Shown here in pieces: positions 491-42,842 of a stretch of DNA of 64,000 nt (position 1 is the stretch's first letter; every line of letters begins with the position of its first letter). Under the pieces are notes generated by a model that had not been told where the DNA came from, made no database searches, and saw only the letters and a list, made by a program, of their open reading frames with translations. Source of the DNA: Escherichia coli (lineage in GTDB: Bacteria > Pseudomonadota > Gammaproteobacteria > Enterobacterales > Enterobacteriaceae); the NCBI RefSeq assembly GCF_009931435.1, contig NZ_CP043414.1; one strand, written 5' to 3'. The position numbers and the translations under genes were made by a program.

Positions 491-692
491 GGGTAAAGGT
501 GTTCCGGTAAGTAAAAATCGGCCCGTATTCGGGGCGCACAAAAGCCTATCAGGACAGTATACCGAAAAGAGGCCGTCGCCGCGAAAGCGTAACGTTTCTC
601 ATTGAAATTCACTACACTTAACCCCATGCTACACACATTATGTAAAGCGCCTGTTGAGCGCTTCCTTAACCTCTTTAACCAGGACTGCGCTA

Positions 693-2735
693 ATGACGAA
701 TCCGTTACTGACTCCCTTTGAATTGCCTCCGTTTTCTAAAATTCTCCCGGAACATGTCGTTCCAGCCGTGACGAAGGCATTGAATGACTGCCGCGAAAAT
801 GTGGAGCGCGTAGTAGCGCAAGGGGCACCGTACACCTGGGAAAATCTCTGCCAGCCGCTGGCGGAAGTGGACGATGTGTTGGGGCGTATCTTCTCCCCGG
901 TCAGCCACCTGAACTCGGTGAAAAATAGCCCGGAACTGCGTGAAGCGTACGAACAAACCCTGCCGCTGCTGTCGGAATACAGCACCTGGGTAGGGCAACA
1001 TGAGGGGCTGTATAAAGCGTACCGCGACCTGCGCGATGGCGATCATTACGCCACGCTGAATACGGCGCAGAAGAAAGCGGTTGATAACGCCCTGCGTGAT
1101 TTTGAACTCTCTGGCATCGGTCTGCCGAAAGAGAAACAGCAACGCTACGGCGAAATTGCTACCCGTCTTTCCGAGTTGGGCAACCAGTACAGCAACAACG
1201 TCCTTGATGCGACAATGGGCTGGACCAAACTCGTTACCGACGAAGCGGAACTGGCGGGTATGCCAGAAAGCGCGCTGGCGGCGGCAAAAGCCCAGGCCGA
1301 AGCGAAAGAACTGGAAGGCTACTTGCTGACGCTGGATATCCCAAGCTATTTGCCGGTAATGACCTACTGCGACAACCAGGCCTTGCGTGAAGAGATGTAT
1401 CGCGCTTACAGCACCCGCGCTTCCGATCAAGGCCCGAACGCCGGTAAGTGGGACAATAGCAAGGTGATGGAAGAGATCCTCGCTCTGCGTCACGAACTGG
1501 CGCAACTGCTGGGCTTTGAAAACTACGCCTTTAAATCTCTGGCTACCAAAATGGCGGAGAACCCGCAGCAGGTGCTTGATTTCTTAACCGATCTGGCAAA
1601 ACGCGCCCGTCCGCAGGGCGAAAAAGAGCTGGCGCAACTGCGCACTTTCGCCAAAGCCGAATTTGACGTCGATGAGTTGCAGCCGTGGGATATCGCATAC
1701 TACAGCGAAAAACAGAAACAGCACCTCTACAGCATCAGCGACGAACAGCTGCGTCCGTACTTCCCGGAAAACAAAGCGGTTAACGGCTTGTTTGAAGTGG
1801 TGAAACGTATTTACGGCATCACCGCTAAAGAGCGTAAAGATGTTGATGTCTGGCATCCGGATGTCCGTTTCTTCGAACTGTATGACGAGAACAACGAACT
1901 GCGCGGCAGCTTCTACCTCGACCTGTATGCCCGTGAAAACAAGCGCGGCGGGGCGTGGATGGATGACTGCGTAGGCCAGATGCGTAAAGCCGACGGTTCG
2001 CTGCAAAAACCGGTCGCGTACCTGACCTGTAACTTCAACCGCCCGGTGAATGGTAAACCAGCGCTGTTTACGCATGACGAAGTAATCACCCTGTTCCACG
2101 AGTTCGGTCATGGTCTGCATCATATGCTGACCCGCATCGAAACCGCCGGTGTGTCTGGTATCAGCGGGGTGCCGTGGGATGCGGTCGAACTGCCGAGCCA
2201 GTTTATGGAAAACTGGTGCTGGGAGCCGGAGGCGCTGGCGTTTATCTCCGGTCACTATGAAACCGGCGAACCGCTGCCGAAAGAGTTGCTGGATAAAATG
2301 CTGGCGGCGAAGAACTACCAGGCGGCGCTGTTTATTCTGCGCCAGCTGGAGTTCGGCCTGTTCGATTTCCGCCTCCATGCCGAGTTCCGCCCGGATCAGG
2401 GAGCGAAAATCCTCGAAACTCTGGCAGAAATCAAGAAACTGGTTGCCGTAGTACCGTCTCCATCCTGGGGCCGTTTCCCGCACGCTTTCAGCCATATTTT
2501 CGCCGGTGGTTATGCCGCAGGTTACTACAGCTACCTGTGGGCTGACGTACTGGCGGCAGATGCCTTCTCGCGCTTTGAGGAAGAGGGCATTTTCAACCGT
2601 GAAACCGGACAGTCGTTCCTCGACAACATTCTGAGCCGTGGCGGTTCAGAAGAGCCGATGGATCTGTTCAAACGCTTCCGTGGGCGTGAACCGCAACTGG
2701 ATGCGATGCTGGAGCATTACGGCATTAAGGGCTGA
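693..2735 (+). CDS. prlC: Oligopeptidase A (M3 family zinc metallopeptidase)
   Basis: ORF track 654..2735; likely true start is ATG at 693 ([17 protein letters not shown]...); HEFGH zinc-binding motif present; 680 aa. Confidence 0.95.
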
Positions 2736-6568: not shown

Positions 6569-6668
6569 TGCCTGATGCGCTACGCTTATCAGGCCTACAT
6601 AATCTCTGCAATCTATTGAATTTGCATGTTTTTGTAGGCTGGATAAGGCGTTCACGCCGCATCCGGCA
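6569..6668. repeat. BIME (two inverted REP units) between uspB and pitA
   Basis: tgcctgatgcgctacgcttatcaggcctaca ... gtaggctggataaggcgttcacgccgcatccggca; flanked by two gcgggccag..ctgacccgc hairpins at about 6520-6548 and 6700-6722. Confidence 0.8.
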
Positions 6669-37656: not shown

Positions 37657-38322
37657 TTAACTCGCCTGCAAAGCGTTGATTTCGGATTTATCTGCCAGTC
37701 TTTTCAACAGCATATTGAGTAATACGCCATACATTGGCAGGAAGAAAACGATACTGATTAACACTTTGAAACAGTAATCGACCAGCGCGATTTCCATCCA
37801 GTGTTCAGCCATAAAGGCATCTGGGCTGCGCCAGAAGGCAATGAAGAAGAAGGCCAGCGTGTCGCTGACGTTCCCAAACAGGGTGGAAGCCGTCGGTGCC
37901 AGCCACCAGCGACGACTCTGACGCAGGCGGTTAAAAACGTGCACGTCGAGGATTTGCCCCAGCGCGTAGGCCATGAAACTGGCGGTGGCGATACGGGCGA
38001 CAAACAGGTTGAAGTGGGCGAGCGCGCCGAACCCCTGCCATGAACCCATATAGAACAGCGACGAGATGACGTAGGAGATCAGCAATGCGGGGATCATCAC
38101 CGCAAAGATGATGCGACGAGCCAGCGGCGCGCCAAAAATACGCACAGTCAGGTCGGTAGCAAGGAAAATAAACGGAAAGCTAAACGCGCCCCAGGTGGTA
38201 TGGAAACCAAAAATGGATACGGGAAGCTGAACCAGATAGTTACTGGAGGTGATCACCAACAGATGAAATAACGATAACCAGAACAACGCCTTATAGCGTT
38301 GAGTTTGCGAGAAAACGTTCAT
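37657..38322 (-). CDS. yhhQ: Queuosine-precursor transporter (YhhQ/COG1738)
   Basis: 221-aa polytopic ORF MNVFSQTQRYKALFWLSLFHLLVITSSNYLVQLPV... Confidence 0.88.
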   Translation of the reverse strand: MNVFSQTQRYKALFWLSLFHLLVITSSNYLVQLPVSIFGFHTTWGAFSFPFIFLATDLTVRIFGAPLARRIIFAVMIPALLISYVISSLFYMGSWQGFGALAHFNLFVARIATASFMAYALGQILDVHVFNRLRQSRRWWLAPTASTLFGNVSDTLAFFFIAFWRSPDAFMAEHWMEIALVDYCFKVLISIVFFLPMYGVLLNMLLKRLADKSEINALQAS

Positions 38323-38542
38323 ATTGTACCTTTTTGATTAACCATTGGGGTGAGGGAACCCAATACGTACGACACGTCTGTTACCTTAACATAATAACGT
38401 GCTGACCCTTTTTTCGAGCCGCCGCATGATACTGCTTTACGTTGACAATGCAATGGTTAATTTTCACGCAATCGTTAACCTGGTTTGCTTACGGACTCAC
38501 AGGGCGTAAACTAGCGCCGTTTTTTTATGTGATGAGAAGAAA

Positions 38543-38788
38543 ATGACCGATCTCTTTTCCAGCCCTGACCACACACTCGACGCACTTGGCCTGCGCTGCC
38601 CGGAACCAGTAATGATGGTGCGCAAAACTGTGCGCAATATGCAGCCAGGTGAAACGTTGCTGATTATTGCTGACGATCCGGCGACGACACGCGATATTCC
38701 TGGGTTTTGTACCTTTATGGAACACGAACTGGTTGCGAAAGAGACCGATGGACTGCCTTATCGTTATTTGATTCGCAAATCGGGGTAA
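38543..38788 (+). CDS. tusA: Sulfur-carrier protein TusA
   Basis: 81-aa [36 protein letters not shown]... with the CPxP motif. Confidence 0.95.
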
Positions 38789-38842
38789 GGTGGATCAGGC
38801 TAGCGGACCGATCGCGCTCAATTTTGCGGCTTGAAACCGGTT

Positions 38843-39080
38843 TGTAGGACGGATAAGGCGTTCAAGCTGCATCTGGCGATACGGTGCACAATGCCTGATG
38901 CGACGCTGTCGCGTCTTATCATGCCTACGAGTTCTATGCTCTGTGTAGGACGGATAAGGCGTTCACGCCGCATCCGGCGGTTGTGTGTGGATGCCTGATG
39001 CGACGCTGTCGCGTCTTATCATGCCTACGAGTTCAATGCCCTGTGTAGGCCAGATAAGGCGTTTACGCCGCATCCGGCAC
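38843..39080. repeat. BIME cluster (at least four REP units) containing a tandemly duplicated unit of about 100 bp
   Basis: Unit atgcctgatgcgacgctgtcgcgtcttatcatgcctacgagttc.atgc.ctgtgtagg.c.gataaggcgtt.acgccgcatccggc occurs twice (about 38891-38978 and 38991-39079). Confidence 0.8.
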
Positions 39081-39102
39081 GCAAACGTAATGGAATGCAC
39101 AA

Positions 39103-39411
39103 ATGGATTATTTAATTCCAGTTTGTCTGGCATTGCTGGGATTGCTCGCGATCTTCACCCCCAATTGGCTGATCCCTGTTTTTATCGTCGTGGGGGGATG
39201 GCTGGGGGTACTTGCCTGGGGTTGGCTCTGGCTAATGATTTTTTTACCTTTACTTAACGGTGTCGGGCTTGCTTATGCCCTGTGGTTGATGTTCAAAAGG
39301 CCATCCATAGCATCCCGCCTGGTTGCTGCATGCTGTGTTATCTCCGTCATTCTGATGTTAGCGCTTTATTATGCTTTCCTGACTATGCCGCCGTTCCCGC
39401 CTCAGCACTAA
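39103..39411 (+). CDS. Candidate small hydrophobic membrane protein (102 aa, Trp-rich, about three TM segments); not recognised
   Basis: ORF MDYLIPVCLALLGLLAIFTPNWLIPVFIVVGGWLGVLAWGWLWLMIFLPLL... between the BIME cluster and the zntA 3' end; weak RBS. Confidence 0.4.
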   Translation: MDYLIPVCLALLGLLAIFTPNWLIPVFIVVGGWLGVLAWGWLWLMIFLPLLNGVGLAYALWLMFKRPSIASRLVAACCVISVILMLALYYAFLTMPPFPPQH

Positions 39412-39443
39412 GCCTGATAGCCAGAGGCTATCAGGCAACACTT

Positions 39444-41642
39444 TTACTTCCTGCGCAACAATCTTAACGCATTCGCTGTTACCAGCACCGTCGCACCCGT
39501 ATCTGCCAGCACCGCCAGCCATAGTCCGGTCATCCCTAACAGCGTTGTGACGAGGAAGATCCCTTTCAGCCCCAGCGCAATGGTGATGTTCTGGCGGATG
39601 TTGGCGTGAGTGGCGCGTGCCAGTTCAATCATCTGCGCCAGGCCGCGCAGGTGGTTATGGGTTAATGCTGCGTCGGCGGTTTCCAGCGCCACATCTGTGC
39701 CACTGCCCATTGCAATTCCTATGGCGGCAGCTTTCATGGCGGGCGCGTCGTTAATACCGTCACCGACCATCGCCAGAGGCGCATGTTGATTCAGCTCGGT
39801 CACCGCTTTGACTTTATCTTCTGGTAATAGGCCCGCTTTAAATTCCAGCCCCAGTTCACCGGCGATTGCCGCCGCTGCGCGTGGATTATCGCCAGTGAGG
39901 ATCACCCCTTTGACACCCAGGGCGCTCAGTTCGCTGATGGCAGTTGCGGCGTCGGCGCGCAGGGTATCCTGCAATGCAATTACGCCAAGCACGTCATCGT
40001 TACGCACCACCAGTACTACCGTTTGCCCGGCGCTTTCCAGTTCGTTAATTAAACCAGCAAATGCAACAGCCGGATGTTTTCCGGCAGCGCATATCAACAC
40101 GCGCTCGCCGTTAATCAGTGCTTCAATACCAGACCCGACCAGCGCCCGCTGTGATTCGGCGGCGGGAATGGCGAGTTCAGCAACCTGTGCTTCGCGTACG
40201 ATGGCTTGCGCCAATGGATGCGTCGCGCCTTGCTCGACCGCCGCTGCCAGTGTCAGCAGTTCAGATTCACTAATACCCGTTGCCGGATGAATCGCGGTAA
40301 CGCGCGGTTTACCGACGGTCAGCGTACCGGTTTTATCAAACGCCACCTGGGTAACACGACCTAGTTGTTCCAGCGCCGCACCGCCTTTAATCAACGCCCC
40401 ACGACGCGCTGCGGCTGCCAGCCCGGAGGTGATCGCCGCAGGTGTTGAGATCACCAGCGCACACGGGCAGCCAATCAGCAGCAGCGTCAGCCCTTTATAA
40501 ATCCACTCCTGCCAGCTTGCGGCAAACAGCAGCGGCGGCACCAGCGTCACCAGCAGGGCGACGGCCATAATCGCTGGCGTGTAAATACGGCTGAAACGGT
40601 CGATAAACCGCTCAATCGGTGCGCGGCGCTCTTCAGCTTCTTCGATCAGTTTCAGAATCCGGTCAATGGCGCTGGCACCCGGTTCTGACAGCACTTCCAG
40701 CGTTACCAGACGGTCTACGCTGGTGGCGCCTGCAGGAACTTTATCACCCGTCGCGCGTTCCACCGGAATGGATTCGCCGGTCAGGGCGCTTTCATCAAAA
40801 CTGGCAAAGGGCGAGAGCAGTTTACCGTCGGCAGGTAAACGCCCACCTGCCGCAACTTCGATAACATCGCCCGGACGCAGGCTGTTAATTGCTACCTCTT
40901 CACGCTTGCCATTACGCAGGCGCGTGGCGGTTTCCGGTTTCAGCGCCATTAACGCGCTGACCCCTTGACGCGCGCGGCTGGCGGCCCAGCCTTCCAGTCG
41001 TTCACCAATCAAAAACAGCAGCAACACCATCGCAGCTTCAGCCGTTGCGCCAATAAACAGCGCACCAATAGCGGCTACGCTCATTAAGGTTTCAATAGCG
41101 AAGTAGCTGCCGGATTTGATCAGCCGTAATGCCTGACGAGCAATCGGGTACAGCCCAACCAGCGTGGTCGCGATAAACGCCAGTTGACCGAACGGATGAT
41201 TAAACTGCTCCAGACCCCAGCTGATTGCCATCAACACGATTAGCGTAATCAGCGGCAGATTCTCTTTCAGGCGTGATTCTTGTTGTTCGTCGGCGGACTG
41301 TTCATCGCGCAGGGAATAGCCCGCTTTTTGCACCGCAGATTCAACTTGTGCACGGATGTCATTGTCGGCATCAACCACCAGTTTTTCGGTGGCGAACAGC
41401 ACCTGCACCTGATTCACGCCTGCAAGCTGGCGCACGGCATTTTCTACCTTGCGCGCGCAGGCGGCGCAGTCCATGCCGCTGACTTTCCAGCTATAGCGGG
41501 TGCCGGAGACGTTTTCAGAGAGCGTTGGCGTGCTGGAACATGCGCCGTCGCAGCAACAGTCGTTGACGTTCTGTACCGTGGTTAGCGGTTTGAACGCAGA
41601 AAATTGAGGGGCTTTCTTGCCGTGATTGTCAGGAGTCGACAT
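39444..41642 (-). CDS. zntA: Zn/Cd/Pb-exporting P1B-type ATPase ZntA
   Basis: 732-aa ORF; N-terminal metal-binding GMDCAACARKVE, CPC transmembrane motif, DKTGTLT phosphorylation site. Confidence 0.96.
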   Translation of the reverse strand: MSTPDNHGKKAPQFSAFKPLTTVQNVNDCCCDGACSSTPTLSENVSGTRYSWKVSGMDCAACARKVENAVRQLAGVNQVQVLFATEKLVVDADNDIRAQVESAVQKAGYSLRDEQSADEQQESRLKENLPLITLIVLMAISWGLEQFNHPFGQLAFIATTLVGLYPIARQALRLIKSGSYFAIETLMSVAAIGALFIGATAEAAMVLLLFLIGERLEGWAASRARQGVSALMALKPETATRLRNGKREEVAINSLRPGDVIEVAAGGRLPADGKLLSPFASFDESALTGESIPVERATGDKVPAGATSVDRLVTLEVLSEPGASAIDRILKLIEEAEERRAPIERFIDRFSRIYTPAIMAVALLVTLVPPLLFAASWQEWIYKGLTLLLIGCPCALVISTPAAITSGLAAAARRGALIKGGAALEQLGRVTQVAFDKTGTLTVGKPRVTAIHPATGISESELLTLAAAVEQGATHPLAQAIVREAQVAELAIPAAESQRALVGSGIEALINGERVLICAAGKHPAVAFAGLINELESAGQTVVLVVRNDDVLGVIALQDTLRADAATAISELSALGVKGVILTGDNPRAAAAIAGELGLEFKAGLLPEDKVKAVTELNQHAPLAMVGDGINDAPAMKAAAIGIAMGSGTDVALETADAALTHNHLRGLAQMIELARATHANIRQNITIALGLKGIFLVTTLLGMTGLWLAVLADTGATVLVTANALRLLRRK

Positions 41643-41715: not shown

Positions 41716-42342
41716 TCAGAGATACAGCGAGCGGACGATGAGGAAATGTCCGGCAAAATAACAAGCGGCGGCAATCGCGTTATCCGCACGGAAGCGTCGG
41801 CGATAGTGGCTACCCAGCCAGACAAAGTTACTGATAAACAGCAACGAAGCGCCGACAAATGCAGAAAGTGCCGGAGCGGTTGGACGGAAGAACCACAGTT
41901 CACCTGCCAGCCATACCATCACCAGCGTCATGCCGATAAACGTGCAGATAGGCCAACGATACTCTTCCAGACGCGTCCAGATAATCGCCAGTAACAGCGC
42001 GCCCAGAACCAGCAATACCAGTGGCAGAGGCCAGAAGAAAGAGAGCGTCATCTGACTGGCGAAATAGATGGTGTAAAGCAGGTGCGAGAGGAAAAACGCG
42101 CCGATGGCGTACATCAGACGTTGACGTGGCAACAGGGTTAGCGCATCGCCCAGCAGTGAGGCGCACAGCCCCGCCAGCACCAGATAGCTAATGGCGTCGA
42201 ACATCGGCGCTTGCCATGCCAGTAACAGCAGGAGAAGAAGGGTTAACGGTTTAAACACCCAGCGTTGCCAGGTTGGCCCACGATACGATGCATCCACAGA
42301 TAGCCATGCGGAAAGACAGACTGCGATAAACGACCAAAGCAT
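41716..42342 (-). CDS. yhhN: YhhN-family inner-membrane protein
   Basis: 208-aa polytopic [41 protein letters not shown]... Confidence 0.85.
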
Positions 42343-42482: not shown

Positions 42483-42842
42483 ATGAGCAAACCACCTCTT
42501 TTCTTTATTGTTATCATTGGCTTAATTATCGTCGCCGCATCGTTTCGTTTTATGCAACAGCGACGGGAAAAAGCTGATAATGATATAGCGCCACTCCAGC
42601 AAAAGTTGGTGGTGGTGAGCAATAAGCGGGAAAAACCGATTAACGATCGCCGTTCGCGCCAGCAGGAAGTAACTCCGGCAGGCACCAGCATGCGCTATGA
42701 GGCGAGCTTCAAACCGCAAAGCGGAGGAATGGAACAGACGTTTCGCCTCGACGCCCAGCAGTACCATGCCCTGACAGTGGGCGATAAAGGTACGCTGAGC
42801 TATAAAGGAACGCGCTTTGTCAGCTTTGTCAGCAAACAATAA
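42483..42842 (+). CDS. yhhM: DUF2500-family protein YhhM
   Basis: 119-aa ORF with N-terminal TM segment MSKPPLFFIVIIGLIIVAASFRFMQQRREKADND... Confidence 0.82.
   Translation: MSKPPLFFIVIIGLIIVAASFRFMQQRREKADNDIAPLQQKLVVVSNKREKPINDRRSRQQEVTPAGTSMRYEASFKPQSGGMEQTFRLDAQQYHALTVGDKGTLSYKGTRFVSFVSKQ

Follow-up and report, generated by a model that had tools for sequence, protein, structure and literature searches.

The stretch of DNA analysed here (the window, 64,000 nt) is a chromosomal segment of Escherichia coli, and at positions 39103–39411 of its plus strand, stop codon included, the listing of open reading frames gives an ATG-started ORF of 102 amino acids, the product of which is predicted to be a four-helix inner-membrane protein. 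Upstream and in the same direction lies tusA (38543–38788, plus strand; sulfurtransferase TusA), the constant left-hand neighbour of all family members found, and from the right zntA (39444–41642, minus strand; Zn/Cd/Pb P-type ATPase) converges on the ORF, 32 nt from its stop codon. The wider neighbourhood includes yhhQ (37657–38322, minus strand), yhhN (41716–42342, minus strand) and yhhM (42483–42842, plus strand), all three named from matching RefSeq records. Between tusA and the ORF there is a REP/BIME cluster composed of three units of about 100 nt belonging to the repeat families D1 and D2 (38843–39079, plus strand), the end of which is separated from the start codon of the ORF by 24 nt. 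Rfam matches to naRNA4 cover the units (38847–38925, 38948–39025 and 39048–39082), and one of them passes the gathering score. The REP consensus was not detected within the ORF, the units ending at 39079–39082 and the ORF beginning at 39103; the sole Rfam overlap with the latter is a weak minus-strand naRNA4 (REP) match extending to 39122 (E = 0.039), and no Rfam family was found inside the ORF body. The cluster lies outside the gene, yet any read-through from tusA must cross it. The number of REP copies at this junction varies, being three in the window and one or two in other carriers: strains CB6837 and GF4-3 have one unit fewer than the window, and in O145 the distance from tusA to the ORF is about 145 nt. 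Across the whole window the Rfam scan at gathering score also revealed the sRNAs RyhB (63762–63826, plus strand) and ES036 (CssrF; 6591–6631, minus strand), both expected in this chromosomal region and unrelated to the ORF.

The product contains 6 Trp (5.9%) and 22 Leu (21.6%) residues, has a GRAVY index of 1.45, and carries only five ionisable residues (D2, K65, R66, R72 and H102). It is 100% identical to the RefSeq entry WP_000385055.1, a “hypothetical protein” represented by annotated coding sequences in two other E. coli loci (L001 and L019). An earlier note on this DNA, drawn up from the letters alone, had given the ORF the coordinates cited above, had placed it between the BIME cluster and convergent zntA, and had described its product as highly hydrophobic, Trp- and Leu-rich and not recognisable as that of a named E. 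coli gene. The gene listing, the positions of the REP units and the amino acid composition bear out this description, and the lack of a name agrees with the RefSeq label and with the absence of the segment from K-12 (JM83) and most other E. coli. RefSeq already lists this sequence, and the ORF as such is therefore no discovery; what the present analysis adds is the evidence of selection, the four-helix architecture, the short-form relatives and the history of the tusA–zntA junction.

Signals for translation and transcription are modest. The motif TGGAATGC (39091–39098, plus strand), with its GGA located 8 nt before the ATG, is likely a weak Shine-Dalgarno (SD) element, and alignment of the upstream regions showed GGAAT to be invariant in all nine Escherichia loci compared below as well as in the distant short-form homologue. 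The best SD:anti-SD duplex amounts to −3.3 kcal/mol, in line with the weak ribosome binding site remarked on previously; since the values for the real neighbours tusA (−2.7 kcal/mol) and yhhQ (−3.9 kcal/mol) are similar, this weakness does not disqualify the ORF. No sigma-70-like site was found by promoter scan of the region 38400–39700, which, together with the gap of only 27–36 nt between tusA and the short-form genes in loci L005 and L007, suggests that read-through from tusA may supply the transcript of the ORF. The two convergent stop codons are 32 nt apart, and this gap is filled by a perfect 11-bp hairpin, GCCUGAUAGCC-AGA-GGCUAUCAGGC (39412–39436), with a folding energy of −20.9 kcal/mol (z = −3.5; as stable in 0 of 200 shuffles). 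It is a candidate shared, bidirectional terminator, and the ORF transcript would then end at a hairpin common to the ORF and zntA. The simple terminator scan did not pick this element up because no strong T-run follows the hairpin.

Conservation of the reading frame and its damaged alleles

The length of the ORF is not beyond chance: an open frame of at least 102 amino acids was present in some frame of 28% of 5,000 composition-matched random sequences of 655 nt, and T/G-rich sequence readily translates to hydrophobic peptides rich in Trp and Leu. No other open frame spans the segment. Since the length is unremarkable, the case for a gene rests on comparative evidence, for which nine sequence-distinct loci from several Escherichia species were used, with two further E. 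coli loci (L001 and L019) encoding exactly the protein of the window, eleven in all. All nine distinct loci are exactly 309 nt long, with neither stop codons nor indels, and their 77 variable sites are distributed over codon positions 1, 2 and 3 as 22, 16 and 39. Of 85 changes inferred, 39 are synonymous, against 24.9 ± 4.1 expected when the same types of mutation are placed at random on the sequence, and just one of the 5,000 simulations reached this number (P about 2e-4); in either of the other forward frames only 17 changes would be synonymous.

Pairwise Nei-Gojobori dN/dS for the ORF ranges from 0.11 to 0.71, typically 0.3–0.5, compared to 0.03–0.05 for zntA of the same genomes, about ten times the zntA ratio, and its dN is about four times that of zntA. 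Constraint is unevenly spread, the C-terminal half (residues 47–102) being usually the more conserved one and the N-terminal half showing dN/dS of at least 1 in a few pairs. Nucleotide divergence of the ORF between species is about 10%, and dS of flanking zntA is 0.35–0.59. In-frame length variants of 105 (P0016) and 99 (P0021) amino acids also exist. These data support the assignment of the ORF as probably protein-coding and subjected to moderate purifying selection, though weakly constrained. The earlier note had left undecided whether the frame encodes a real small membrane protein or is open by chance and had pointed to conservation of the frame and to dN/dS across relatives as a way to decide; comparison with other genomes favours a gene on both counts, given the dN/dS values, the synonymous excess, the 309-nt frame intact in nine distinct Escherichia loci and a distant syntenic homologue (see below). 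In most inter-lineage pairs (L007–L010, L017 and L018) the ORF shows only about one half of the dS of its two neighbours, tusA and zntA; between the window and L007, for instance, its dS is 0.07, as against 0.44 in tusA and 0.37 in zntA. Such low values could reflect noise expected for 102 codons, recombination of the segment among lineages or a constraint on the nucleotide sequence.

Damaged alleles are known as well, and all those examined differ by loss of one nucleotide in a homopolymer. DNA alignment of L021 and L023 with the window located one of the sites at the T7 run in codons 46–48 (39239–39245, plus strand), where T6 instead of T7 produces truncated alleles of 61 amino acids (P0032–P0036) on two different allele backgrounds. 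The other is the G6 run in codons 30–32 (39192–39197, plus strand; L025, proteins P0023 and P0026), reduced to G5 in some E. marmotae genomes, so that the N-terminal third is in another frame and the protein acquires a chimeric N-terminus read from an ATG at 39090. Altogether about 290 distinct full-length sequences stand against about 30 truncated ones, some of which come from contig ends or old assemblies prone to homopolymer errors. The frameshifts could mark a slippage hot spot or, in some cases, errors of sequencing or assembly (older assemblies, e.g. B093).

Distribution in Escherichia and history of the tusA–zntA junction

Of the 5,426 complete E. coli genomes, 317 contain the 354-nt segment as a single chromosomal copy with identity of 90–100% (at least 99% in 92 genomes, 95–99% in 172 and 90–95% in 53), meaning that the ORF is absent from about 94% of the complete genomes. 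In 40 out of 40 sampled rows the annotation under the match is “hypothetical protein”, and an intact non-pseudo coding sequence of 309 nt is present in the five loci fetched; besides the entry identical to the window, RefSeq holds WP_000385056.1, WP_000385059.1 (O145 strains) and WP_171460688.1. The ORF is missing from the genomes that represent E. coli and E. fergusonii, and the segment was detected neither in K-12 (JM83), where about 100 nt separate tusA from zntA, nor in a CFT073-like strain, where REPs are kept together with what appears to be one arm of the downstream hairpin. The ORF is located at the same place in species representatives of E. albertii, E. whittamii, Escherichia sp. E1V33 and Escherichia sp. 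MOD1-EC7003 and in a divergent lineage labelled E. coli SCPM-O-B-8794, and it is also found among proteins of E. marmotae and cryptic clades; the scan of species-representative contigs returned five Escherichia representatives and none outside the genus. Wherever the surroundings were compared (the window, L001, L002, L005–L010, L017–L019 and L021–L025), the family member is codirected with tusA and lies downstream of it, and identity of the window’s product to its Escherichia counterparts is 84–100%. Its occurrence in outgroup species indicates that the ORF is ancestral to the genus and was lost by deletion in most E. coli. In K-12 JM83 (L004, about 1090–1190) and the CFT073-like strain (L003), the sequence …CCCTCTCCCCAGAG(A/G)GGCGAGGGGACCGATCGC… directly follows tusA, and the window has no such piece in the interval 38789–39443. 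As the strains devoid of the ORF carry a different piece after tusA, the junction has been remodelled on both sides, and not by simple deletion alone. Two peculiarities concern E. albertii: in the type strain (L008, 4001–4306) residues 41–42 are EP instead of WL (GEPW versus GWLW), a multi-nucleotide change in the otherwise conserved Trp-rich junction of helices 2 and 3, and in another record of this species only the C-terminal 58 amino acids are annotated (P0031).

Exhaustive phmmer search over 1.84 billion representatives yielded a single distant match, P0039, a protein of 83 amino acids with 39% identity (E = 6.6e-6), encoded on the Logan contig ERR10299652_22468 (L005; 1.4 kb), the TusA of which clusters with TusA of Superficieibacter. 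Identity of P0039 to the product of the ORF is 37–39%, and the Smith-Waterman score, 148 compared to 35.7 ± 6.4 for shuffled sequences (z = 17.5), places the similarity beyond shared composition. The gene starts 36 nt after tusA and is preceded, just as the ORF of the window, by the motif GGAATGC; the protein begins with MKYLVP (MDYLIP in the window) and ends with FPAQH, and differs from the window’s product in being 19 residues shorter, in having K2 instead of D2 and in the absence of the first helix (three predicted helices versus four). A word-based search with P0039 returned only itself, the profile search with alignment A4 brought no new relatives, and in six Superficieibacter loci tusA is present with no family member beside it. 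One more short form, a frameshifted paralogue, was found in the SCPM-O-B-8794 lineage (L007, 3575–3816, plus strand), 27 nt after tusA and ahead of the intact long form, and no complete E. coli genome contains DNA matching this paralogue. The long form (102 amino acids) and the short form (83 amino acids) compose a tiny orphan family, and all of its members found are encoded just downstream of tusA.

In L005 the gene for P0039 converges on a gene for a protein of 162 amino acids (688–1176, minus strand), their 3′ ends overlapping by 4 nt. Homologues of the latter with 57–64% identity, 162–164 amino acids long and annotated by PGAP as “DUF2004 domain-containing protein”, separate the ORF from zntA in E. 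coli GF4-3 (L018, 3382–3876), E. albertii (L008, 4372–4863) and Escherichia sp. MOD1-EC7003 (L009, 4381–4872); the gene also occurs in L020 (3501–3995), and all these copies are on the minus strand. Only two among the 5,426 complete E. coli genomes have this gene, and strain 6EVA, being one of the two, carries it without the ORF. Its 164-aa product showed no match to Pfam, even at E ≤ 10, to NCBIfam or to PDB sequences, and its AlphaFold2 (AF2) model is too poor for use (pLDDT 40.6). The ancestral order was likely tusA, short form, long form, convergent 164-aa gene, zntA, the three middle genes having been lost independently in different lineages; the history of this locus is unusually clear.

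Predicted architecture and comparison with known families

The AF2 model built on an alignment of 15 sequences (mean pLDDT 72.8, pTM 0.54) contains helices at residues 4–18, 21–39, 41–65 and 69–94, thus one more than the three or so transmembrane helices that the earlier note had predicted. All four would span the membrane. The only cluster of basic residues (K65, R66 and R72) falls between helices 3 and 4, and by the positive-inside rule this loop would be cytoplasmic and both ends of the protein, the conserved FP(P/A)QH tail at the C-terminus among them, periplasmic. The short form aligns from residue 21 of the long form onward, and residues 2–17 of the long form resemble residues 21–36 (z = 4.5), from which we infer that its extra N-terminal helix probably arose by internal duplication of the “xYLIPV...” helix. 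Replacement of K2 in the short form by D2 in the long one would fit a flipped N-terminus according to the same rule, if one helix was added. P25, G32, W33, R72, S81 and F98-P99-x-Q101 are among the residues invariant between both forms, and many alleles have F and S in place of C77 and C78.

Scans of the ORF product and P0039 against Pfam (E ≤ 1), NCBIfam and PADLOC gave nothing usable. The only profile match, to subunit F of monovalent cation/H+ antiporters (MnhF/PhaF, NF009243; residues 45–91, E = 0.0069), scored 17.1 bits against a cutoff of 95. Both proteins are hydrophobic and about 90–100 amino acids long, and shared hydrophobic composition is the best explanation of the match; identity with this subunit was rejected in view of the score, of tusA and zntA as neighbours and of no mnh or pha genes nearby. 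Profile search of PDB sequences returned no match, Foldseek comparison of the AF2 model with PDB retrieved only generic helical bundles, all with E > 0.9, and a search of the available library of papers by RefSeq accessions, DUF2004 and the tusA/zntA context brought nothing relevant. Type I toxin-like peptides such as Hok, Ldr, Ibs and TisB are under about 60 amino acids, have a single transmembrane helix and are overlapped by an antisense sRNA. The product of the ORF, with its 102 amino acids and four helices, was not assigned to this class, and no Rfam antitoxin sRNA was found in 38300–39800 at E ≤ 1. A component of anti-phage defence was discarded as well, PADLOC giving no match at E ≤ 1 for the ORF, P0039 or the 164-aa neighbour. 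TusA partners of the YeeE/YedE type are proteins of about 350 amino acids with multiple helices, the Pfam sulphur-transport domain and conserved cysteines; the ORF product has 102 amino acids, no Pfam match at E ≤ 1 and cysteines (C77/C78) that many alleles do not keep, and it was not placed among them. The closest resemblance in kind is to small inner-membrane accessory proteins (AcrZ, KdpF, CydX and MgtS), which are likewise short, extremely hydrophobic, non-catalytic-looking, dispensable, easily overlooked and encoded beside larger genes. Those proteins are mostly under 50 amino acids, have one helix and are encoded in the operon of their partner, whereas the product considered here has 102 residues and four helices and shares no sequence similarity with them.

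Nature of the gene

Taken together, these comparisons make it probable, at roughly 70%, that we are dealing with a real accessory gene, restricted to certain lineages, that encodes a small polytopic protein of the inner membrane. Moderate purifying selection has preserved its frame of 102 codons throughout Escherichia, and the gene is nevertheless dispensable, having been deleted in the large majority of E. coli with a few surviving alleles frameshifted in homopolymers. A caveat for this reading is that only one homologue is available outside Escherichia, and it resides on a contig of 1.4 kb. As to the role, our best guess is that the protein assists or modulates some membrane process without being essential, rather than acting as an enzyme or transporter, because it is small and has neither polar or catalytic residues nor pore-like features. 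The ORF would then be a conserved but optional gene missed by the K-12-centred gene list, and one more uncharacterised small membrane protein of the Escherichia accessory genome. Its practical use is small, namely as a presence/absence marker at the tusA–zntA junction and as a candidate for screens of small membrane proteins, and no new biology of broad interest is suggested short of a proven connection with TusA or ZntA.

A different fate may be imagined for the same gene, i.e., that it was functional in the ancestor of Escherichia, became effectively neutral in E. coli and is now being lost, the copy in the window staying intact only because no disabling mutation has occurred yet. The scale of loss is consistent with such decay (the gene is deleted in 5,109 of the 5,426 complete genomes of E. 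coli, and the ancestral 164-aa neighbour survives in only two), as are the recurrent frameshifts in the two homopolymers (T7 and G6), which involve different allele backgrounds, and dN/dS values about ten times those of zntA, which in the N-terminal half rise to 1 or above in some pairs. However, neutrality is at odds with the low ratios observed within E. coli itself, which are 0.11 for the window versus CB6837 and 0.13 for the window versus GF4-3, and with the value of 0.16 for O145 versus E1V33. The sampled E. coli carriers are all annotated as “hypothetical protein”, the five loci fetched contain intact 309-nt coding sequences, and distinct full-length sequences outnumber truncated ones by about 290 to about 30. 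We therefore regard a decaying relic as unlikely.

Functional coupling to a neighbour is the subject of other readings, each of which we hold to be less credible than the genuine accessory gene of general kind. It is improbable that the protein serves as a dedicated partner of TusA in the membrane, comparable to the YeeE–YeeD pair, or as a regulatory subunit of ZntA, comparable to KdpF, MgtS or MgtR. Here the argument comes from position only, the members being codirected with tusA and following it, with the short forms 27–36 nt away, and the long form abutting zntA in Escherichia; yet the 94% of E. coli devoid of the ORF retain both tusA and zntA, which presumably function there, the six Superficieibacter loci have tusA with no relative of the ORF, the ORF converges on zntA and is thus outside its operon, and no similarity to YeeE/YedE or to known small ATPase subunits is seen. 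We would likewise give poor odds to the more specific version, in which an undescribed family, originally encoded at the distal end of the tusA transcript by one cistron or more, works with TusA. If that were true, the family might, for instance, hold the sulphur carrier at the inner membrane or link TusA to a membrane process, and most E. coli would have lost an optional branch of the sulphur relay. Convergent arrangement of the ORF family and the 164-aa gene in four distant settings (L008, L009, L018 and L005) could speak for a two-gene module, for example a membrane toxin with its cytoplasmic immunity protein or antitoxin, or a membrane anchor with a soluble partner. All four states of presence and absence exist, though, with the 164-aa gene alone in E. 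coli 6EVA and the ORF alone in about 315 E. coli genomes, in E. whittamii, in L006 and in L007, and an addictive toxin could not have remained so widespread in genomes devoid of the antidote, which led us to reject the toxin–antitoxin reading; the missing PADLOC match and the dissimilarity to type I toxins weigh against it too, and a module of any sort appears very unlikely. Hardly credible, finally, is a chance ORF in a non-coding spacer conserved for the sake of a DNA or RNA feature, such as the 3′ UTR of tusA or zntA or a REP-associated element. The non-significant length, the failure to find a promoter in the scanned region and the halved dS, which could point to constraint on nucleotides, are compatible with it, but the body of the ORF contains no Rfam family and the segment no alternative open frame, third-position bias and the synonymous excess follow the frame, and P0039 at its low level of identity retains the length class, the hydrophobic pattern, the C-terminal FPAQH and the position after tusA, protein features that a non-coding element would not conserve.
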